Virus record (IMG/VR): IMGVR_UViG_3300023179_000038
Location: 46,678-110,677 of that record
Length of the DNA stretch: 64,000 nt
Reading direction: 5' to 3' (one strand)
Source: a virus
The position numbers were made by a program, and so were the translations under genes. Below are positions 5,535 through 64,000 of this stretch, in pieces (within the stretch, counting starts at the first letter, position 1; every line of letters begins with the position of its first letter). The notes below the pieces were generated by a model, which was not told the DNA's origin, made no database searches, and was given only the letters and a program-made list of their open reading frames with translations.

Positions 5535-5552
5535 GATTAATCTATTATACCA

Positions 5553-21545: not shown

Positions 21546-21563
21546 AGTAAATAAAGTATACCA

Positions 21564-27995: not shown

Positions 27996-29564
27996 TTATT
28001 GAGACGATCTTCCTTCACCTTTAGGATTTCTACCATCTAATGTTGCTGTACTATCAGACTGATTGTTGACTCTTTCGGCATCTCTTTGACGTCCCTGATT
28101 TAATTGAACTGGAGTATCCCCGCCCGCAATCATTGGAAGTTTCAGTACTTCTCTTGCTTCATTTGGAACCATAATTTGAGTCTTTACAAATCTTTCAAGA
28201 ATCTGAGATTGAGCAATTTCATCTGTTAGGGTTAATTCATTAAACTTTAACTCTAAAATATCTGTCTTTTCTCTTATTATTTTATTTATTATTTTTTCAA
28301 GTTGTCTTTGTGCTGGTCGTGCAACCTGCTCTTTAAATGTACGATCTTGGGCAAGCGCTGATGCGATTGCAGAAGAATCTCCTCCACCAATCTTTGAAAG
28401 AGGAACCTGATGTGCAATTAATATGTCATCACGATTTTGTTTTCTATATCTCTCAAAAGAGCCTTCCTGAACCCCCGTTTCAATTGGATCCATCTTAAAT
28501 TCAACTTTGTTAGAATCGCTATCCCCTGGAAGAGGTATATAAAGAGTTCTGTGAGATTGCCCCTTTAGCCCTGTTTGTAAAAATCTAAACATTTTGTCTT
28601 CTGCATCTGAAGAAAGTTTTGCACCTTTTAAAGTGACTACATAACGTGGAACAGCCTTGTTAGAAAAATAATCTATGTTGTATTGTGATGCTAACTGATC
28701 ACCTTGCAAAGAAGTGATTGCAGACATGATATCTGGAACTCCATAGAAAGTGTTTAATGGAGAATATTGTTTAAAATGAATAATTTCATTTGGTCTGGTG
28801 TCTGATGTTATTGGGTTTGCGTTTTTTGCTGCAAAATTTCTAAAATAAACTACTTTATTTCCAATAATCTGTAAATATCCATCACGCAACCTACGAATAC
28901 GAATCGTTGTTGCTGGGATATGTCCTATGTAACCTATGTCTCCTGCTGTAGTTCTACCAATTTCAAGGTATCCATTGCCAATTGCCTGAACATCAGTAAA
29001 AACCTTTTCCATGGTTGTTGTAAAAGAGTCATCATCATTTAGTGATTCTAACCAATCACGTAATTCTATTTTTGCTCTTTCAATTCTATTACGTGCACGA
29101 CCAACTGAATCTTTGTCTGGAGAAGACTCTAACTTAAGCATTGTTCTTGGAGATATTTCAAAACTATAACCTAGACCAACAATGTTCTCTACTTTGGCAT
29201 CTATTGCTGCATGATTAGCAAATGATGTGTCATAATAATTAGCAAGTTCATAAACATTCCATGGTGGAGTTATGACATCAAACATTCCATAACCATTTCT
29301 ATAAACAGTTCCTGGATTTATTTCCTTTGATTGTGCGCCATTTATTCCAATTTGATTGCTGCGAGCACTATCCAAATACGATGCTGTTGGCTCAACAGAC
29401 TTGTTTATTCTGTTTGTCCTTCTTTTAAAATTATTATCTAATCCAGAAAAATTTTTTAAAACATCCCAATTTTGATTAAACGGATCAGATTTTTTAAAAA
29501 TATCATCTTGTTTAACTAAATCATCTATTTTTGCACCAATTATATATTCATTATCATCTGACAT
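27996..29564 (-). CDS. Portal protein
   Basis: GNGYLEI, NEIIHF, YGVPDI, YFSNKAVP, PNEARE motifs. Confidence 0.92.
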   Translation of the reverse strand: MSDDNEYIIGAKIDDLVKQDDIFKKSDPFNQNWDVLKNFSGLDNNFKRRTNRINKSVEPTASYLDSARSNQIGINGAQSKEINPGTVYRNGYGMFDVITPPWNVYELANYYDTSFANHAAIDAKVENIVGLGYSFEISPRTMLKLESSPDKDSVGRARNRIERAKIELRDWLESLNDDDSFTTTMEKVFTDVQAIGNGYLEIGRTTAGDIGYIGHIPATTIRIRRLRDGYLQIIGNKVVYFRNFAAKNANPITSDTRPNEIIHFKQYSPLNTFYGVPDIMSAITSLQGDQLASQYNIDYFSNKAVPRYVVTLKGAKLSSDAEDKMFRFLQTGLKGQSHRTLYIPLPGDSDSNKVEFKMDPIETGVQEGSFERYRKQNRDDILIAHQVPLSKIGGGDSSAIASALAQDRTFKEQVARPAQRQLEKIINKIIREKTDILELKFNELTLTDEIAQSQILERFVKTQIMVPNEAREVLKLPMIAGGDTPVQLNQGRQRDAERVNNQSDSTATLDGRNPKGEGRSSQ

Positions 29565-34854: not shown

Positions 34855-36891
34855 TTAGTATAATTTTATCTCACAAGCGTCTGTACTGCAATAGGCTTCA
34901 CCTTGTGCTTCTAGATTTTCTACTCCATCATAGATGGCAGACCAGTCAATCTTTGCAATTTTGCCTACGTAAGAATTGTACTCTTCTCTTGTAATATTGT
35001 TATATGGTTGTTGTGGAAATGTTTCATTGCCCATTGGCAAAAATGAAACAGCCTTTAATTCGCCCTCATAAAGATGAAGTGCTGGAGCCACATGTTTTTT
35101 TTCTGTTTCTTTATCAAATGATAGAGTTACAGATACTCCATTATCAGACCAGTATTTTTGAGCGGTAGCAGCCAAACCAATCTTTTCAAAAAGACTTACA
35201 TCTTTTTCAGAACGTGGATGTTCAGATGCTACTGGAAAATATACTACTGAAGTATTGGCAGACACTAAGTCTGCTTCTACTTTATACCCTGCTGCTTTGA
35301 ATAAATGAAGCATTGGATCTGTATTTCCAAACCTTATGGCACGTAGATAAAATGCCCCTCCTGGACCCCAGTGAACTCCTGGTGTTGCACCAGAAAGTAG
35401 TGAAACGGATCCTGAAGGTTTGACAGTAGTTACACGAATTGATTCACGTACACACAGCCACTCAGAGTATGAGTGATCGTATGCTTTAATTTTTTTATAC
35501 CCTTCGTCCATCCATTCACGAACTGCTGGCATGCCTTTTGTATCTGCAAAAGATGCAATACCAGTTAAAGATGTTCCAATACGACGATTACGTTGCATAA
35601 TACCATTTGTGGTTTGCCAATGTGTTGGCATCAGGGTTACAGTCTTTCCATATAAATACGCAAACTTTAGTGTACGAAGAAAATCTTCTTTATCTTCATG
35701 ACGGTTTAAGTGAACCTCTACTAACGTACATAGTTCGTATGATTCTAATGGTTGTTCTGCACATGGATTAAAGCCCATTACACGATAATCTTTTCCATCT
35801 GGTGCATCTGCAAGTCTTCCATAGTTACGAGCAACGTCAAGCCAAATAAATCCTGGCTCTCCATTATCTGCAATTAAATCAACATAGTCTTCATAGTTTG
35901 TTCCAACTTCTGCAGCAATAGAGTTATTGGACATCCAAGCCCACCCTGGATTTTTTGGATCATAAGAATTACGTTCTGGAAAAACCTCTGCATTTTTTAA
36001 ATTACTAAAATCTTTGTCATCTGCATCTCCTAAAGCAAGAGTGGCAGAACGACGAACATTTCCTGAAACTACGCAGGTACCAATAAGATTAACAATATCT
36101 ACTATTGCACGAGAGTCAAATTTGTCCCCTGCCCTAGATCCTATAATTTTTGTAATACGGTTGTGTAAGTCCATTAATGGCTCTGGACCACTGGCTACCC
36201 CACCAAAACCCTTAATAGGTGCTCCTAGAGGCCTTATAAAGTCATACGTGAACTGTTGTATAGGTTGGTTTGGACGCAGGTATGAATTAATTAATAATCT
36301 TACAGACTCAACCCAACCCTCTCTAGTATCAGGAATTTCATATATTGAGGGTGGCTCTGTTGGCGCATAGATTAACATTTCTTTCTCTTGTCCAAGGGTA
36401 TCAAACCCTACCCCTATGCCTAGCATTAATGCATCCATTACCCAGGCAAACAATGCCCCTGGATCATTACGATCAATGTCACGAGTAGAAACCATTGCAC
36501 AATTTTGTAAAGCAGCAGAGTTGCGTTTTTCCATTGTCATAGGAGTACCAAAAGCCCATAAGCCACGACCAGGGGGAGTCCATTTTAAATTAAACATTCG
36601 ATCAAATGCTTCTTGTGCAGATTTTTGTGCCTTATAGTCGTTCCAAGGTAAACGATTTTCTTTAGCATGATTTTTTTGAACAGAATACATTCCTTCAATT
36701 ACACGTTTGCAAACTTCATACCATCTTTCTTTAGTATTGTCTTCTTTCATGCGAGAATATGTTCTAATAAAAGTAATCTCTCCCAAAGAATTACTAGCAG
36801 CATCTTTAAATCCGAAGGGCGCTTCAAGTTTTTTATAACTCTCTATAAAATCTAATGATAATTTAAAAGAAAAAAAGTCTGACATATGCAT
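34855..36891 (-). CDS. nrdJ: Class II (AdoCbl-dependent) ribonucleotide reductase, monomeric RTPR type
   Basis: PPGRGLW, GNVRRSA, NPCAEQPLESYELCTL, TTVKPSGSVS, C-terminal CSTDAC. Confidence 0.95.
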   Translation of the reverse strand: MHMSDFFSFKLSLDFIESYKKLEAPFGFKDAASNSLGEITFIRTYSRMKEDNTKERWYEVCKRVIEGMYSVQKNHAKENRLPWNDYKAQKSAQEAFDRMFNLKWTPPGRGLWAFGTPMTMEKRNSAALQNCAMVSTRDIDRNDPGALFAWVMDALMLGIGVGFDTLGQEKEMLIYAPTEPPSIYEIPDTREGWVESVRLLINSYLRPNQPIQQFTYDFIRPLGAPIKGFGGVASGPEPLMDLHNRITKIIGSRAGDKFDSRAIVDIVNLIGTCVVSGNVRRSATLALGDADDKDFSNLKNAEVFPERNSYDPKNPGWAWMSNNSIAAEVGTNYEDYVDLIADNGEPGFIWLDVARNYGRLADAPDGKDYRVMGFNPCAEQPLESYELCTLVEVHLNRHEDKEDFLRTLKFAYLYGKTVTLMPTHWQTTNGIMQRNRRIGTSLTGIASFADTKGMPAVREWMDEGYKKIKAYDHSYSEWLCVRESIRVTTVKPSGSVSLLSGATPGVHWGPGGAFYLRAIRFGNTDPMLHLFKAAGYKVEADLVSANTSVVYFPVASEHPRSEKDVSLFEKIGLAATAQKYWSDNGVSVTLSFDKETEKKHVAPALHLYEGELKAVSFLPMGNETFPQQPYNNITREEYNSYVGKIAKIDWSAIYDGVENLEAQGEAYCSTDACEIKLY

Positions 36892-44124: not shown

Positions 44125-44144
44125 AATATTAGATTATACCATAA

Positions 44145-44672: not shown

Positions 44673-44700
44673 ATTTATTTATTATACCACTTTTACGCAC

Positions 44701-45360: not shown

Positions 45361-45388
45361 GGACCTCTCTTAGGAGGGGTTCTTTTTT
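45361..45388 (+). terminator. Intrinsic terminator after transglycosylase
   Basis: GGACCTCTC-TTAG-GAGGGGTTC-TTTTTT. Confidence 0.75.
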
Positions 45389-46362
45389 ATTTCTTGAAGT
45401 ATCCAGTTATAAGTTTTTTCAATTCCCTCTTTTAATGTCATAGAATAATCCCAACCTAACTTTTCTTTAACCAGGTTGTTATTAGAATTTCTACCCCTGA
45501 CACCCAAGGGTCCAGTAATATGCATTTTACTTAAAACCTTGCTTTCAACACTACAGGCAATATCTACTAACTGATTTATAGTAACTATTTCTTCAGACCC
45601 AATATTAACTGGTCCAGTAAAATCTGATTGCATGAGTCTTCTTGTTGCTTCTATGCATTCATCAATGTATAGGAATGAGCGGGTTTGTTCTCCGTCCCCC
45701 CAAATTTCTACAGAATCTTTTGCTTGTATAACTTTACGACATATTGCAGCAGGGGCCTTTTCTTTTCCACCATCCCAAGTTCCTTCTGGGCCATAAATAT
45801 TATGATATCTGGCAATGGCTACAGGAATTTTATTGTTTCTATTAAAGGCTAAAAACATTCTCTCGCTAAACAGTTTTTCCCAACCATATTCGCTGTCAGG
45901 ATCTGCAGGGTATGCATCAGACTCTTTAAGGCCAGGATTATTTACATCTAACTGCTTATAGTCAGGATACATGCAAGCAGAACTTGAATAAAATATTTTG
46001 GTTTTATTAATATCGTGTTTTGCGTTTAATCTTGATTGAGCCCTTAAAAGATTAAGATTTATAAGTGCAGAATTTTCCATAATTTGAGAATCATTTATGC
46101 CAGTAAAAATATATCCTGCGCCACCCATATCTGCAGCAAATTGATATATTTCATCAAATGCTATTGTGCCCACGAGATGTATAATGCTTTCAATATTTTC
46201 ATAGACAGATAAATCTTTTTTCATAAATTCATCTGCTTTTGTTTTTGAAAAATCTGGAAACTTTAAATCAACACCACGAACCCAATATCCTTCAGATTTA
46301 AGCCTATTAACCATATGGCTACCTATAAAACCACCTGCACCTAAAACTAATGCTGATTTCAT
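45370..46362 (-). CDS. GDP-mannose 3,5-epimerase-like extended SDR
   Basis: GAGGFIG, AADMGGAGYI, YSSSACMYP, YGWEKLFSE, GGKEKAPAAICRK, GVRGRNS. Confidence 0.88.
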   Translation of the reverse strand: MKSALVLGAGGFIGSHMVNRLKSEGYWVRGVDLKFPDFSKTKADEFMKKDLSVYENIESIIHLVGTIAFDEIYQFAADMGGAGYIFTGINDSQIMENSALINLNLLRAQSRLNAKHDINKTKIFYSSSACMYPDYKQLDVNNPGLKESDAYPADPDSEYGWEKLFSERMFLAFNRNNKIPVAIARYHNIYGPEGTWDGGKEKAPAAICRKVIQAKDSVEIWGDGEQTRSFLYIDECIEATRRLMQSDFTGPVNIGSEEIVTINQLVDIACSVESKVLSKMHITGPLGVRGRNSNNNLVKEKLGWDYSMTLKEGIEKTYNWILQEIKKNPS

Positions 46363-46404: not shown

Positions 46405-47352
46405 TTAAACTAAAACAGATATTTGTTTTTCCCAAAACTCAGAAATATGTAAATGTCTGTGTAGTCCAGGATGTGGCCAATGTGCTCCAGAACCTTTTAG
46501 CCGTCCATAGTTATAGGGGATTTTATGATAGTCATATGCGTGTTCAAATATGTCTGGATATTTATCTTTATATTCTTTATGGCATCCCTGCCAATTTATC
46601 ATTTCAAAATAAGGAGGCAATCCAGATATATTTTCTGGATTACATCCAAACTCAAAGGCTGTAGGAAATTGTGTTTTTGTTGTGTCTGTAACGTAATGTC
46701 TAAAATTATTTTTTAAAAATTTTTCTTCTTTTTCTGTTAATCTATTTGACCATGTAGTCCAAATTAATTTAATATCATTAGATTCACAAAAAGCCTCTAG
46801 CATTTTAATATGATCTAGATTTTGATAATAGACCCACTCATATGGCAAAATTTCTTCATAGTCCCAAGGAGCCGATGCCTTTGTTTTTTTTTCTTTATGA
46901 TTAATGTACCACATGTGCATTGCATTAGCATCTTGGCTAATAAAATAAAATCTTTCAAAATTAGCAAAATGTGCAAGTACTACTTTTGGTTTATATTTGT
47001 ACTGATGAATCATTCCAAAAAAACTTGACACCAATAGATTTGCAGATGCTCCAGAATAAGATATGTTTCCAATGGGCTTATTAATTTTGTCTGAAAGAAT
47101 ATTAGACCATCTAAGGTTTTCTGGCATTCCCTGTCCTAATGTCAATGAGCATCCTAAAACTACAACTTCTGGATTTGTAGAAAATTCTACAGATCTCAGT
47201 CCATCACTATTCCATACATAATTATATTCTGGTCTTTCTATTTCTGAATGTGATGCCAATACTGCATTAGTAACAGAATAATTTGTATTAGGGTATTTTC
47301 TATTGATTCCACAATAAGGAATAACTCTTGGGTTAAATATATCAAATAGCAT
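46405..47352 (-). CDS. SGNH-like hydrolase/acyltransferase-type protein
   Basis: LGCSLTLGQG block I, GAS block II, C-terminal HPG..H. Confidence 0.55.
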   Translation of the reverse strand: MLFDIFNPRVIPYCGINRKYPNTNYSVTNAVLASHSEIERPEYNYVWNSDGLRSVEFSTNPEVVVLGCSLTLGQGMPENLRWSNILSDKINKPIGNISYSGASANLLVSSFFGMIHQYKYKPKVVLAHFANFERFYFISQDANAMHMWYINHKEKKTKASAPWDYEEILPYEWVYYQNLDHIKMLEAFCESNDIKLIWTTWSNRLTEKEEKFLKNNFRHYVTDTTKTQFPTAFEFGCNPENISGLPPYFEMINWQGCHKEYKDKYPDIFEHAYDYHKIPYNYGRLKGSGAHWPHPGLHRHLHISEFWEKQISVLV

Positions 47353-54779: not shown

Positions 54780-54976
54780 AATCATTGATTATACCATAAA
54801 ATAAAATTAATAATTAAACAATATTTTATCTTTGTATTTTGTTTTGTGGTATAGTAGTTATAGGGTTTGTGGGGACTTTGCACTAGAGATGCATTCTTAC
54901 TTCCACCATTAGATGTAACAAAAAATCTATGGGGGGAGGGGGGGACTTTCCCTCAGAGATACTACTTATAAAATAA

Positions 54977-57365: not shown

Positions 57366-57755
57366 ATGATATTTCACAAGCATTTACTTATTAACGCTAA
57401 GGTAAAGGATCCAATTAATAGTGAAGATCAAGGTGTTGATTTTCTTACCCGCTTAGTTGATCGTATAGATATGAAGATTATCAAAGGACCTTTTGCGTCT
57501 TATGTTGACAAACCAGGCAATCGTGGACTTACGGCTATAGTAATGATTGAGACTAGTCATATTGCTTTTCATATATGGGATGAGATAGATCCGTCATTAG
57601 TTCAGTTTGATTTATATACCTGCGGAAAATTAAATCTTGCTCAGGTTCTTCTTGCTTTTGGAGAGACCTTTAATATTATAAATATTGACTATCAATTATT
57701 CGATAGAGAAAACGGATTTGTATTAGAAGATAAAGGCTCTTGGCCAGAAATCTGA
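57366..57755 (+). CDS. speD: S-adenosylmethionine decarboxylase proenzyme
   Basis: HLLI, GLTAIVMIETSHIAFHIW (self-cleavage at SH), DLYTCG. Confidence 0.85.
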   Translation: MIFHKHLLINAKVKDPINSEDQGVDFLTRLVDRIDMKIIKGPFASYVDKPGNRGLTAIVMIETSHIAFHIWDEIDPSLVQFDLYTCGKLNLAQVLLAFGETFNIINIDYQLFDRENGFVLEDKGSWPEI

Positions 57756-58437
57756 AAAAATTTTTAAAAAGCGTTTTCATAAAAATCTGAATATTTTTCT
57801 CAAATGTATGATACAGGTTTAAAAAAATAAAATAAAAAAAATATAGTGAGCACACTACTTAGAGTAGTGGGCCCTATCATAATTTGCAAGGGTGCCACCA
57901 TTTTCTAGGTGGGCCTTGCGTCTTAATTGCTCAGCAGAATACTCAGCCATTTATTTATATTTTCTCATCACTCTAATAGAATAAATCAATCCTATAGTAG
58001 CAACGAGCAACCATGTAGGCAATTCTATTGCTACACCATTTGGATATAGGTTGTTAATATAAAATGCTATATATTCTAAATCTGCGTAGAACTCCATTTT
58101 ATTCCTTGTCCTCTCCGAACATTTCTACTAACACCTTGTTAGCATTTTGTAAAGCCTCTATGGCTTCGTTAATCTTATCAGCGTTAGTCATAGTTAGTTT
58201 CCTATCTTAGCAGACATAACCCAACGGCTTTCGTTAGGTGAAAGGTATTTGTGAGAGATAACTCCTTGAGATGATACCAACATCTCTAGGTATGCCTTTC
58301 GGCTCATGTAGTTTCCTACTGTATTGCGAAACAAATTGTTATCGCCTGTATTAGATGAAGCCATAACATGGTTAGGCTCTAGTACTATTGTATTTAGTGA
58401 AGTCATTTTAACTTCCTTTCTTTTTTCTATACCCGCT

Positions 58438-58459
58438 AGTCTAGCAGGGGGGTCTGACA
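58438..58459 (-). promoter_or_regulatory. PafBC/RecA-NDp-type promoter
   Basis: TGTCAG-N10-TAGACT on minus strand. Confidence 0.7.
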
Positions 58460-58487
58460 TTTTGGGGTCTTATTTGCTTAGGCTCAC

Positions 58488-58503
58488 TGTGATTTGTATC
58501 ACA
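58488..58503. promoter_or_regulatory. CRP-family-like site (perfect)
   Basis: TGTGA-TTTGTA-TCACA. Confidence 0.7.
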
Positions 58504-58783
58504 TTTATTTGCTAAGGCTCATACCCTAAACTTTCTATATTTAATTTGATACTGGTATCCTATCATAGATAATCCTAAAAGTCAAGAGCAGACACGGCGT
58601 GTCGCATGTGATTTATACCACAAGACAATTGGTGCAAATCGGACATGACCTCGGCGCTAACGGCGTGTCGTCCACATGATATAAATCACACCCTTATGTT
58701 ACGCTTAAGTTATCCACATGACGTACATCACATCAGCGAATTGTCTGCTATGTCCGTTTTGTTATATCTACTGGCTAGTAGAA

Positions 58784-58805
58784 TGTCAGTGGTAGGTGTT
58801 AGAAT
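58784..58805 (+). promoter_or_regulatory. PafBC/RecA-NDp-type promoter
   Basis: TGTCAGTG...: TGTCAG-N10-TAGAAT. Confidence 0.72.
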
Positions 58806-58856
58806 ACTAGTATAAAGATTGAAAAAGAAGTAAATCTCTTAAAGAAAGGAATTCAA

Positions 58857-59368
58857 ATGAATTCACTACTAAATAAAAAGTGTGCTAAACACTTACCAAA
58901 TAAGTTAGCGATATCATTGGTAAATGATATAAAATATACCTTCTGTGAAAATTGTGAGCAGAATATTTATTCTCACTATATTGAGGATAGCGAATTGCTA
59001 TCTTATTGGTCTTCATGGAAGGTAGGTAAGTAATATGGAAAAACTTATTTGCTGTTTTTGTGAAAGTGTTTCATCTAGTGAAGCAAAGTTTTGTTTCTCA
59101 TGTAATGAATATAAAGGCTTAATGCCAATATCTAAATTTGATAATCTCTACGGAAGGAGATAAATAAATGATAACTAAAAAATGTATATCATGTAATGGT
59201 ACCGCTATGGTATCTAAAGTTTCTATCCCTGCTATTTGCGATAATTGTATCGCTAAGAATTGGAGTAAATAAATGATAACTCTTAATTGTCGTCTATGTG
59301 ATGAAAAAGTTTCTAGCAATTTATTTGATGAGCAAGATATAATTACTTGCTCAAATTGTTGGGAATAA
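58857..59368 (+). CDS. Four consecutive Cys-rich microprotein ORFs (58857-59033, 59035-59163, 59168-59272, 59273-59368)
   Basis: Manual translation; tightly packed with RBS-like motifs and CxxC pairs. Confidence 0.65.
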
Positions 59369-59735
59369 AAAAATGCTTAACGAAATAAAAAATAAAGTAA
59401 TTCGTATTCAAGAGTTGCGTCGTAGTAATGCTGCGACAGCAATTCCAAATAAAAAAAAATATACTAGAAAGGTAAAACATAAAAATGGAAAAACAAAATA
59501 AAGATATTTTTAATTTTGAAAAAGCAATTCAATTAGATCACTTAACAAAAGATGAATTAGAATTAGTAGAAAATATTTTAAAAGATTTTAAATAAATTCT
59601 GCTAAAAAAATCCCGAGGCGTTTTGTCCCAAATGTCCGTTTACGTACGATGTGTTTAAGATCACAGAAATCTTGTGGCGTAAATCACACCGCTGAGCGTC
59701 TTACTATTTAAGACTACTCGTGGGTAATTTGTAAA

Positions 59736-59757
59736 TGTCTGCTAATTTTGGTAAACT
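59736..59757 (+). promoter_or_regulatory. PafBC/RecA-NDp-type promoter
   Basis: TGTCTG-N10-TAAACT. Confidence 0.6.
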
Positions 59758-59795
59758 TACAGAGTAATAAAAATAAAGAAAGGAAGTGGCTATAA

Positions 59796-59996
59796 ATGGC
59801 TAACTTATACACAATAGAAAACCTGCTAGAAGGTAAAGAGTATAATTCACGCTCTCTAAATGGTGAAATAATAAACGCAGAAAAAACAGACCATTGGTTT
59901 GGTAATGGAAAAGAAGCGTATCGTGTTCTAATCAGAACGCCTTATTCTTATAAAGACCACTATCGCATAATAGCGGTAAAAGTAGGTGATGAATAA
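59796..59996 (+). CDS. Hypothetical early protein
   Basis: ORF after GAAAGGA RBS. Confidence 0.65.
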   Translation: MANLYTIENLLEGKEYNSRSLNGEIINAEKTDHWFGNGKEAYRVLIRTPYSYKDHYRIIAVKVGDE

Positions 59997-60113
59997 TGGG
60001 ATATATTGAAATCTTTCGCCTTGATGAGCAGGGCGCTGGCTGGGTTGACCTTTCTGAGGCTACCCCTCAAGAATTGCTAGACCTTGAAATAGGCTTATTT
60101 CAGGAAGGGGCTT

Positions 60114-60129
60114 TGTGAGATAAATCACA
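60114..60129. promoter_or_regulatory. CRP-family-like site (perfect)
   Basis: TGTGA-GATAAA-TCACA. Confidence 0.7.
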
Positions 60130-60157
60130 AGGCAACACACCCCTAGCAGGTAGAAAA

Positions 60158-60179
60158 TGTCAGGGGTTTTTGATAGGAT
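60158..60179 (+). promoter_or_regulatory. PafBC/RecA-NDp-type promoter
   Basis: TGTCAG-N10-TAGGAT. Confidence 0.7.
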
Positions 60180-60213
60180 AGTCTTATCAAACAATAAAGA
60201 AAGGTAATCAGAA

Positions 60214-60399
60214 ATGACTTATACTGTAAAACTAGAAACCTATAATGGTGCTGTAAAAAATATCAACCTACCTTCTAAAGGTGCTGTTGCTCAATTCATA
60301 AACACTTACCCAAACCAACTACCTGTTGGCGTATCTGTTAAATTAAATTGTGATGTGCTTGGTATTAGTGGCACACTACGAGGAAAGGCGTTAGCATAA
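60214..60399 (+). CDS. Hypothetical early protein
   Basis: ORF after GAAAGG RBS. Confidence 0.65.
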   Translation: MTYTVKLETYNGAVKNINLPSKGAVAQFINTYPNQLPVGVSVKLNCDVLGISGTLRGKALA

Positions 60400-60529
60400 T
60401 GATAAATTCTGTAATGTCTTTTGATTGTAATGAGTGTAATGGTAAAGGTTTAATCTTTTGGGGAGATAACCTTGACTACAATGTAGAAAAATGCGAGTGC
60501 GATAATTTTGCGTTAGGAAATTTATTCTA

Positions 60530-60733
60530 ATGAAAACAATTAAACACTCTCTACACTTTGTAACTGAGTTAGATGAAACTAATCCAACTGCTAAACAATT
60601 ATTAGACTTACCTGCTGATGAGCAAATAATGCTTTTAGAGGGTATGCTTAAAGAATTAGTTGCCCCTAAGTTATCTAAAACAATTAAAGAGTTAAACGAA
60701 AATAATTCTTTTGCAACTCTAAGGTTGGCTTAA
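60530..60733 (+). CDS. Hypothetical early protein
   Basis: Coupled ORF. Confidence 0.6.
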   Translation: MKTIKHSLHFVTELDETNPTAKQLLDLPADEQIMLLEGMLKELVAPKLSKTIKELNENNSFATLRLA

Positions 60734-60735
60734 TA

Positions 60736-60927
60736 ATGATGACTAGAAAAGACTATATAAAAACCGCAAATATCTTAAAAGGATTTGTTGATGAAATTCC
60801 ACAAACCACTTATGAGGATTTAGTAAATGAATTTGCTGAGTGGTTCAAATCTGATAATGATAATTTTGATTTTGCAAGATTTGAAAAGGCTTGCGGAATT
60901 GATGAGATTGGTTTAATTCCAGTTTAA
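60736..60927 (+). CDS. Hypothetical early protein
   Basis: MTRKDY..A....DN.NFD.ARF.KAC motif. Confidence 0.65.
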   Translation: MMTRKDYIKTANILKGFVDEIPQTTYEDLVNEFAEWFKSDNDNFDFARFEKACGIDEIGLIPV

Positions 60928-60973
60928 TAAATAAAATCCCCTCTAGAACAAATGTTCGGAGGGGGCCGAGGGG

Positions 60974-60994
60974 TTTTCCACAGGTTTATCCACA
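60974..60994 (+). promoter_or_regulatory. Tandem DnaA boxes
   Basis: TTTTCCACA-ggt-TTATCCACA. Confidence 0.65.
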
Positions 60995-61047
60995 GGCCTT
61001 TACGTGTGATTAAAAACACACCCTGAATTCCCCAGATTTTTTGATTT

Positions 61048-61069
61048 TGTCAGCCTAATCTGATAGGAT
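61048..61069 (+). promoter_or_regulatory. PafBC/RecA-NDp-type promoter
   Basis: TGTCAG-N10-TAGGAT. Confidence 0.7.
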
Positions 61070-61094: not shown

Positions 61095-61280
61095 ATGAGT
61101 AAAATAAAAAATGCTATTGAGCAGATAGTTAATTGTGATTATTGCTATGGCGTAGGTTGGGAATACTACGGAAATAATGAGGATTGGAATATAGACCCTT
61201 GCGAGTGTAATTTGTATTGTATTCCTTCTGATGAGATAATGGAATACCACCAATTATTTAGAACAAAGGAGAACGCATAA
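61095..61280 (+). CDS. Small Cys-rich early protein
   Basis: CDYC.G.G...CECN. Confidence 0.6.
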   Translation: MSKIKNAIEQIVNCDYCYGVGWEYYGNNEDWNIDPCECNLYCIPSDEIMEYHQLFRTKENA

Positions 61281-61489
61281 TGGAATATAACTATTCACTT
61301 ACTACTTCGTATGACGGAGAGTTAATTCATACCCTGCGAGTTAGCGATATGCTAGAAGCAGTAGACGCATGGAATAAATGTGTAGACTATGGAACAGCCA
61401 AAGAATACGCAACCTATAACTTGTCAGACCCTATGGGCAAAATGTACACTAAAACCTTCTACACTAACGGAGAAGTAAGTGTTAGATAA
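61280..61489 (+). CDS. Hypothetical early protein
   Basis: Coupled ORF with GGAG RBS. Confidence 0.6.
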   Translation: MEYNYSLTTSYDGELIHTLRVSDMLEAVDAWNKCVDYGTAKEYATYNLSDPMGKMYTKTFYTNGEVSVR

Positions 61490-62294: not shown

Positions 62295-63017
62295 ATGACC
62301 CAATTAAAGAGATCTTATGACAGAAAAGTGGCTAACCTTGTATCAAAAAACGGAAAGCAAGCAGCAATTGCAAACACGTTCGGTTTACCCGCTGGAAAGA
62401 ATTATTCATGCCCTGGTGCCACTATGGTTTGTGAGAATGTTTGTTATGCAGGAAAACTCGAAAAACTCTTCAAAGGAGTAAAGACTAATCTCCTGCACAA
62501 TTGGGAGTTGTTAAAAGACGCAGATCAAGAAACTATGGAAAAGTTATTGGGTGCAATGATTGATGATTTTAGAACAGATTGTGAGAAGAAAGACGCAGTT
62601 ATGCTATTTCGTATTCACTGGGATGGTGATTTTTTTAATGATACTTATACCAACGCATGGCGCAATGTAATTAGAAATAATTTTGATATAAAATTTTGGG
62701 TATACACTAGAGTACACTCTGCAGCGCTAATGCTCAAAGGTATACCTAATCTATCTTTATACTATTCAACAGATAGCGAAAATAAAGAGATAGGTGTTAG
62801 TCTTAAAAAAGATCATGGTGTTAGACTTGCATACCTTGCTAAAAATTTTGCAATAGGCCAAGCAGATATGAAAGAATTATTTAATCGTCCTGGCGCTAAG
62901 TGTCCTGAGAACTTAAAGTCAATTCCCCTTATCTCAAATGCTGGAAGCGCTTGCGTATCTTGCGGATTGTGTGTATACTCTAAGAGTGATATCGTATTCT
63001 CATCATCTAAAAAATAG
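62295..63017 (+). CDS. GP88-like (radical-SAM-related) phage protein
   Basis: FGLPAG..SCPGAT..C...CYA, FRIHWDGDF, FWVYTR, C-terminal CP..C..C.LC. Confidence 0.7.
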   Translation: MTQLKRSYDRKVANLVSKNGKQAAIANTFGLPAGKNYSCPGATMVCENVCYAGKLEKLFKGVKTNLLHNWELLKDADQETMEKLLGAMIDDFRTDCEKKDAVMLFRIHWDGDFFNDTYTNAWRNVIRNNFDIKFWVYTRVHSAALMLKGIPNLSLYYSTDSENKEIGVSLKKDHGVRLAYLAKNFAIGQADMKELFNRPGAKCPENLKSIPLISNAGSACVSCGLCVYSKSDIVFSSSKK

Positions 63018-63114: not shown

Positions 63115-63130
63115 TGTGAGATACATCACA
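63115..63130. promoter_or_regulatory. CRP-family-like site (perfect)
   Basis: TGTGA-GATACA-TCACA. Confidence 0.7.
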
Positions 63131-63239
63131 GATACCATATCTCAAAATATGAGATTATTAGAAAAATAACTTGTATTTTTAGCCAAAAAATGTTAGACTT
63201 AAACAGTAAGTAAAACCAACAAGAAAGAAGGAAAACCAA

Positions 63240-63406: not shown

Positions 63407-63519
63407 ATTCCTAATACAGGAAAAGACCTGAGCATGTCTGCTAAAACTGCTCAACTTGAAATTATCATAGCAAAATGCTAGGATAGAAACCCCTAACAAA
63501 GAAAAGGAAAACGACCCAA

Positions 63520-63945: not shown

Positions 63946-64000
63946 TTAGATGGGGGAAGGGTATTTGACTTCCCCCCTAAAAAATGTTAGACTTAATACA

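Follow-up and report, generated by a model that had tools for sequence, protein, structure and literature searches.

Clustered promoters of an IMG/VR virus carry the bipartite motif of actinobacterial PafBC-dependent promoters upstream of small genes

Which factor reads a group of similar promoters that lies among the small genes of the virus recorded in IMG/VR as IMGVR_UViG_3300023179_000038? The DNA analyzed here (the window) is a 64-kb stretch, positions 46,678 to 110,677, that forms the last part of this 110,677-bp record, whose G+C content (GC) is 33% and whose completeness is 99%. A first-pass annotation, made from the letters of the window, described five intergenic promoters that share TGTC[A/T]G exactly 10 nucleotides (nt) before a TAnnnT box, and equated this motif with the DNA-damage promoter of Actinobacteria that is activated by PafBC. 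The DNA-damage response of Actinobacteria is governed by PafBC, its master activator; the sigma adaptation by which PafBC works, triggered by single-stranded DNA (ssDNA), was solved only between 2021 and 2025. In Mycobacterium and other Actinobacteria, promoters that depend on PafBC (RecA-NDp promoters) are read by sigma adaptation (PMC8635444, PMC6789036, PMC11804915). In vivo these promoters conform to tGTCgg(N10)tA(N3)T; the box, called the '-26 element', covers -28 to -23, and a -35 element is absent. The helix-turn-helix domain of PafB, a subunit of PafBC, reads the two G:C pairs of the GTC triplet, and PafBC is placed between sigma region 4 and the DNA (PMC8635444). Furthermore, PafBC is activated by ssDNA and associates with polymerase after the latter has bound the promoter (PMC11804915).

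The pattern TGTCWG-N10-TANNNT was scanned on both strands. The window shows six matches, in relation to 1.84 ± 1.17 in shuffled sequences, and none of 100 shuffles reached six. Five of the six fall within 2.6 kb, at 58459 (minus strand), 58784, 59736, 60158 and 61048, which are exactly the positions given by the first-pass annotation. The sixth, at 29114, is intragenic, and the remainder of the genome has one match only, also intragenic, at genome position 26958; a whole-genome scan, which had been suggested as a check, leaves these two intragenic matches outside the five. The hexamer is TGTCAG at four sites and TGTCTG at one. Since the spacer sequences differ among all five, none of the sites is a copy of another. 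An origin by chance, or by recent duplication of functionless DNA, has the shortness of the motif in its favor and nothing else. This explanation is already refuted, with a probability close to nil, by five sites seen where about 0.07 are expected from base composition in 2.6 kb, by the differing spacers, by the fixed placement before a ribosome-binding site and an ATG, and by conservation in phages whose proteins are 66-81% identical.

All five sites are intergenic, and in each of them a TGn triplet stands directly before the -10 box, as in extended -10 promoters. The leftward promoter (58438-58459, minus strand) is composed of TGTCAG, 10 nt and TAGACT, with TGC as its extension. On the plus strand, the promoter at 58784-58805 shows TGTCAGTG, 8 nt and TAGAAT, with TGT; that at 59736-59757 shows the TGTCTG variant, 10 nt and TAAACT, with TGG; and those at 60158-60179 and 61048-61069 show TGTCAG, 10 nt and TAGGAT, both with TGA. 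At 59736 (TTGTAA) and 61048 (TTGATT), but not at the other three sites, TTG stands at the -35 position, separated from the -10 box by a 17-nt spacer. The ATG is found 31, 51, 38, 34 and 25 nt past the -10 box (sites 58438, 58784, 59736, 60158 and 61048, in this order), with a ribosome-binding site of the AAGGA/GAAAGG type in front of it in every case, as the first-pass annotation had described for its small operons. TGTCAG was also considered as a -35 element and rejected, because its spacing to the -10 box is 10 nt and not 17.

The hexamer, the 10-nt spacing and the position of the box at -28 to -23 agree with the in vivo consensus of PafBC promoters, and the equation of the two motifs is upheld (PMC8635444). 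The exact 10-nt gap between the box and TAnnnT is held in the window and in relatives of the phage. Four of the five window sites conform to the -26 element TGTCRG, while the TGTCTG of 59736 falls outside R at position 5. For comparison, metagenome contigs of 50-74% GC, a range that leaves low-GC lake hosts out of reach, were scanned for TGTCNG-N10-TAnnnT 90-120 nt before the GKG and Walker A codons of recA. At least 80 recA loci carry the motif. Among the matches listed, position 5 is G in 43, A in 27, C in nine and T in one, a distribution that departs widely from the base composition of these GC-rich contigs. RecA encoded on one contig of 52% GC matched best those of M. smegmatis (607 bits) and M. 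tuberculosis (598 bits), with 481 bits for E. coli.

Flanks were compared between 75 of these recA sites and 35 distinct phage sites, five from the window and 30 from four related phages; the recA set had been chosen by the core motif, so only the free positions count. Shared by both sets are A-rich positions -3 and -2, A/T at +6, G/C at +7 and +8, and a -10 box whose third base is G. In the phage sites G/C is found at +7 in 31 and at +8 in 29 of the 35, despite the 33% GC of the genome. The best-match spacer identity between phage and recA sites is 7.79 over 14 free positions, in relation to 7.04 ± 0.16 after shuffling, and none of 200 shuffles reached the observed value. Of the two promoters at the hinge of the window, the leftward one at 58438-58459 shares 19 of 22 bases with a recA promoter on metagenome locus L145, and the one at 58784-58805 shares 18 of 22 with a recA promoter on L135. 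Neither the TG extension nor the -35 TTG that occur among the phage sites is found in the 75 recA promoters.

The 35 phage sites give the consensus aaWT-TGTCAG-W-S-S-N4-TG-n-TAG(g/a)(a/c)T. TGTCAG is present in 34 of them and the GTC triplet is invariant; the TG of the extended -10 is found in 33, and TTG at -35 with a 17-nt spacer in about half. When the scan was anchored on the -10 box and the downstream ribosome-binding site only, it returned 32 exact TGTCAG and the one-mismatch variants TGTCTG, TGTCAC and AGTCAG. The structural genes do not show the element, as the first-pass annotation had noticed; these and the replication genes use extended -10 boxes of the TGGTATAAT type. Many such boxes (TGGTATAAT, TGGTATACT or TATACT) stand just 8-12 nt before the ATG, with TGGTATAAT/TGGTATACT boxes at 44681-44689, 44133-44141, 21555-21563, 5544-5552 and 54788-54796, all on the minus strand, and the resulting mRNAs are apparently leaderless. 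A further type, TTGACT/TTGTAT-17-TGnTAGACT without the TGTC box, is found at 63171-63199, 63456-63484 and 63965-63993, and on the minus strand at 58585-58557. Judged by these features, the box promoters are a distinct promoter class in the genome. Their -10 hexamers (TAGGAT, TAGACT, TAAACT) are weaker than the TATAAT and TATACT of other genes, and so fit activator dependence.

The near-universal TG extension, together with the -35 TTG of about half of the sites, is also what would be expected if the host polymerase used these promoters with sigA alone, TGTCAG being either a plain contact for the polymerase or the operator of a host or phage repressor (which might, for instance, shut the genes off early). 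At some sites TGTCAG may be viewed as forming an imperfect inverted repeat with the CTGATA that comes after it, and operators located in promoter spacers are common. However, the second half-site of this repeat is merely the extended -10 and the -10 box, and the C that would complete the symmetry is found in only 10 of the 35 sites. The likeness to the activator-dependent recA promoters reaches into the flanks and the spacer, and the -10 hexamers are weak in relation to the TATAAT of the other extended -10 promoters of the genome. We regard transcription by sigA alone as improbable.

Using the head maturation protease as query, 470 related loci were found in IMG/VR. Seven relatives (G001, G002, G004, G005, G007, G008 and G009), with protease identities of 66-81%, contain the motif, and each of them has 3-10 box promoters clustered at a divergent hinge like that at 58460-58856 of the window; a reversed-pattern control gave 0-4 matches per strand in the relatives. 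Loss of the motif, or of its fixed spacing, in related phages had been named by the first-pass annotation as grounds against its proposal, and these seven phages keep both. One more relative, G003 (93% complete), shows no sites; it also lacks the GP88-family gene that adjoins the small genes of the window, as does the box-bearing G004, and in G003 the region is probably missing rather than changed. No motif enrichment was found in the T5-like Vibrio phage Thalassa, which was used as a non-actinobacterial control and outgroup. The phage clade is very abundant in public metagenomes: a search with NrdJ (34855-36891) gave at least 8000 candidates with E <= 1e-50, the best 120 of which are 86-95% identical and located on contigs of up to 191 kb.

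Several features of the genome point to an actinobacterial host. All six near-complete relatives encode WhiB, as does this phage, and in a search of 14 control genomes for WhiB, Corynebacterium alone matched at E <= 0.001. The head protease is closest to those of Streptomyces phages (Stanwilliamsviridae, 42% identity) and Rhodococcus phages. Leaderless mRNA is a habit typical of actinobacteria. Because of WhiB, the kinship of the protease, the leaderless extended -10 and TAGnnT boxes, and the GP88-family gene, the host is likely an actinobacterium. The 5.6-kb contig L124 (JBIPLL010000608.1), binned in a Beijerinckiaceae metagenome-assembled genome from Lake Mendota, encodes a WhiB 64% identical to that of the phage. 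Beijerinckiaceae were nevertheless rejected as host, given that the 4.2-Mb assembly contains no other WhiB and the sole matching contig is phage-like; L124 is probably a misbinned fragment of a related phage, and its Lake Mendota origin points to fresh water. A search with a representative WhiB and two cluster look-ups returned only short metagenomic or phage-sized contigs. The best 120 matches of the NrdJ search were all phage-clade proteins, with no cellular relative among them. A nucleotide-sugar epimerase gene (45386-46355) shows 65-70% DNA identity to the marine cyanophages S-SSM7 and P-TIM68. It led to a first guess that the virus was a cyanophage, which was dropped given WhiB, the leaderless promoters and the match of the protease to Streptomyces phages; the likeness suggests that aquatic phages with unrelated hosts exchange genes.

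The first-pass annotation had offered, as an alternative, a PafBC-like activator encoded by the phage outside the window. This found no support, as no WYL domain was detected in this genome or in ten relatives. In addition, Sigma70_r2 and Sigma70_r4 gave no match in this genome, and the MotA C-terminal domain and AsiA (PF09158, PF09010) gave none at E <= 1 in six genomes, those of the phage and five relatives. These negatives bear on a different explanation, in which an activator of the phage's own, not yet identified, reads TGTCAG in the manner of T4 MotA acting with AsiA; sigma70-type promoters elsewhere, such as those at 63171-63199 and 63965-63993, would then be the true immediate-early ones and the TGTCAG class delayed. 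A box near -26/-30 combined with a -10, often TG-extended, is the geometry of T4 middle promoters, a parallel drawn for PafBC itself (PMC8635444), and the phage has room for such a factor in dozens of small open reading frames (ORFs) with no family match. Canonical box-less TTGACT-17-TGnTAGACT promoters stand nearby, and the hexamer varies less than the host consensus does. Apart from the lack of any MotA, AsiA, WYL or sigma domain in the phage or the searched relatives, it is the resemblance of box, flanks and spacers to recA promoters that speaks against it, a resemblance for which a private phage factor would have no need. We consider a phage-encoded reader unlikely.

The box promoters show a second kind of conserved sequence upstream. 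With at most one mismatch, the palindrome TGTGA-N6-TCACA is found eight times in the genome, seven of them in the small-gene region; the eighth, at genome position 24218, is chance-like. The palindrome at 58488-58503 starts 44 nt upstream of the leftward TGTCAG box, that at 60114-60129 lies 44 nt, start to start, ahead of the box at 60158, and that at 61005-61020 (TGTGA-N6-ACACA) 43 nt ahead of the box at 61048. A pair at 59650-59665 and 59673-59688 lies 86 and 63 nt ahead of the box at 59736, and the other two are located at 58607-58622 and 63115-63130. Furthermore, a weaker pair (58675-58690 and 58717-58732) lies 109 and 67 nt ahead of the box at 58784. Across five phages, palindromes are found upstream of 24 of the 35 box promoters, with start-to-start offsets that peak at 43-44, 53-54 and 63-65 nt, that is, about one helical turn apart.

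On these data, we hold as an evenly balanced proposition that in this uncultured freshwater phage the five promoters, which serve about 15 small genes, are read by host PafBC through TGTC(A/T)G as a '-26 element'. Host RNA polymerase with its housekeeping sigma factor (sigA/HrdB type) would bind the TG-extended -10 (TAGnnT) at the five promoters. The host PafBC orthologue, loaded with ssDNA, would dock on TGTC(A/T)G beside the polymerase held at the -10, stabilize initiation and raise transcription. The extended -10, together with the -35 TTG that two of the five carry, could give some basal firing independent of PafBC, and the phased CRP/GlxR-like palindromes would probably bring in a second signal from the host. 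At infection, ssDNA might arise by resection of the linear DNA after injection, at nicks or when host DNA is broken down, all of these sources being assumed. A triggering of PafBC by the incoming DNA itself is speculative.

Several points weigh against host PafBC as the reader. PafBC promoters are defined by the absence of a -35 element, and a TTG with a 17-nt spacer is present at two of the five window sites and about half of those in the clade. The TG extension of 33 of the 35 sites is missing from the 75 recA promoters; because of the extended -10 and the TTG, the box promoters may fire with no activator. Position 5 is A in 34 of the 35 phage sites and chiefly G in the recA promoters, and the downstream genes are not repair genes. 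The Streptomyces phages Wakanda, Comrade and Coruscant and the Rhodococcus phage Grayson showed no enrichment of the motif over the reversed-pattern control, which counts against the proposal because their hosts have PafBC; on the genomes compared, the element belongs to the lake clade and not to the wider phage family. Streamlined lake actinobacteria, as candidate hosts, might lack PafBC, and the link to a damage signal presupposes the assumed source of ssDNA at infection. Thus, of the claim that the phage wires its early genes to the host damage sensor, the part concerning the promoters is favored by motif, spacing, flanks, conservation and a likely actinobacterial host, while their strict dependence on the sensor is weakened by the extended -10 and TTG, which may allow firing independent of PafBC. 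A broader version, in which a lytic lake clade uses host PafBC together with CRP/GlxR as a switch for its small genes, gated by DNA ends or damage and by cyclic AMP, with 'upgraded' PafBC promoters that combine box and extended -10, is put forward tentatively, as somewhat less than an even chance.

The genes under the five promoters are arranged in one leftward transcription unit with a single ORF and four rightward units with, in order, six, two, four and two or more small ORFs; the divergent hinge at 58460-58856 separates the two directions. The leftward promoter precedes a 70-residue ORF (58194-58406, minus strand) with no PHROG match. On the plus strand, the promoter at 58784 precedes six ORFs of 58, 42, 34, 31, 42 and 36 residues (58857-59595), several of them with CxxC pairs; that at 59736 precedes ORFs of 66 and 40 residues (59796-60118); that at 60158 precedes four, of 61, 43, 67 and 63 residues (60214-60927); and that at 61048 precedes two, of 61 and 69 residues (61095-61489), in a unit that may extend to the GP88-family gene at 62295-63017. 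The small ORFs of the five units gave no significant Pfam or PHROG match, two of them showing weak zinc-ribbon Pfam matches, and the same searches detected no known DNA-binding domain. The first four ORFs after the hinge (58857-59368; 58, 42, 34 and 31 residues) each contain paired CxxC motifs, with weak zinc-ribbon Pfam matches, and look like a family of mini zinc-ribbon proteins. We infer that the small genes are early from their size and layout. The small-gene block is adjoined by the GP88-family protein (PF17338, E = 5.6e-51) and, at 57366-57755, by an S-adenosylmethionine decarboxylase-like protein (PF02675, E = 2e-12). The promoters at 63171-63199 and 63965-63993 are near-identical canonical promoters (TTGTAT or TTGACT, 17 nt, AAAAATGTTAGACTTAA) without TGTCAG, and the latter is cut by the end of the contig, so that the gene array carries on at the start of the genome record.

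Other short motifs recur in the same region. Of the seven copies of ATGTCCG(T/A)TT in the genome, six lie in intergenic blocks (58646 on the minus strand, 58750, 59632, 62225, 63085 and 63094). This motif is often near CCGAGGCG, and its TGTCCG core has no correctly spaced -10. The motif CGGCGTGTC(G) recurs in the window at 58595-58604 and 58661-58670, as well as in the relatives L120 and L121, where the TGTCG of CGGCGTGTC begins exactly 14 nt before TGTCAG, immediately ahead of the TTG at -35. GACAC, the reverse complement, is likewise recurrent upstream of the hinge promoters.

In the open literature searched, no report was found of phage promoters built on the PafBC box. The promoter type itself is known; what is absent from the papers searched is its use in arrays by a lytic phage, as a hybrid with an extended -10. 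If lytic phages of the most abundant lake actinobacteria do have these boxes read by host PafBC, this would be the first phage that exploits sigma adaptation, and a new viral way of timing genes that forms a host-factor counterpart to MotA/AsiA of T4. The box could then serve as a marker by which uncultured phages are assigned to actinobacterial hosts, and the promoters would provide natural, compact and strong PafBC-responsive elements for actinobacterial genetic tools. If the box has another reader, the phages of this very abundant clade would share a conserved regulator that is so far unknown.

Compared with known systems, the phage promoters are closest to the PafBC promoters, with which they share the 22-nt bipartite motif, the box at -28 to -23, the flanks and the G third in the -10; TGTCAGTG is common to the phage and the original consensus. 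They differ in the near-universal TGn extension, which recA promoters lack, in the -35-like TTG of about half of the sites, where PafBC promoters have no -35, in position 5, nearly always A in the phage and mostly G in recA promoters, and in the genes served, which are small and of no assigned function instead of repair genes. The middle promoters of T4, with a MotA box at -30 and a -10, are alike in having a box between -35 and -10 that stands in for the -35 or supplements it, often with an extended -10; however, T4 encodes its own MotA and AsiA for 'sigma appropriation', whereas no homologue was found in this phage and its box copies a host motif. The strong early promoters that T5-like and T7-like phages (to the first of which this phage is distantly related through its head protease) present to host polymerase are likewise arrayed, several host-type promoters following one another closely with a few small genes behind each, but are plain sigma70 consensus promoters, to which the phage promoters add an activator-type box. 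Finally, class I CRP/GlxR promoters, in which TGTGA-N6-TCACA is centered near -61.5, -72.5 or -82.5, show the same palindrome and the same phased upstream placement as the phage, which has in addition a -26 box in the core promoter that is not described for CRP/GlxR targets.

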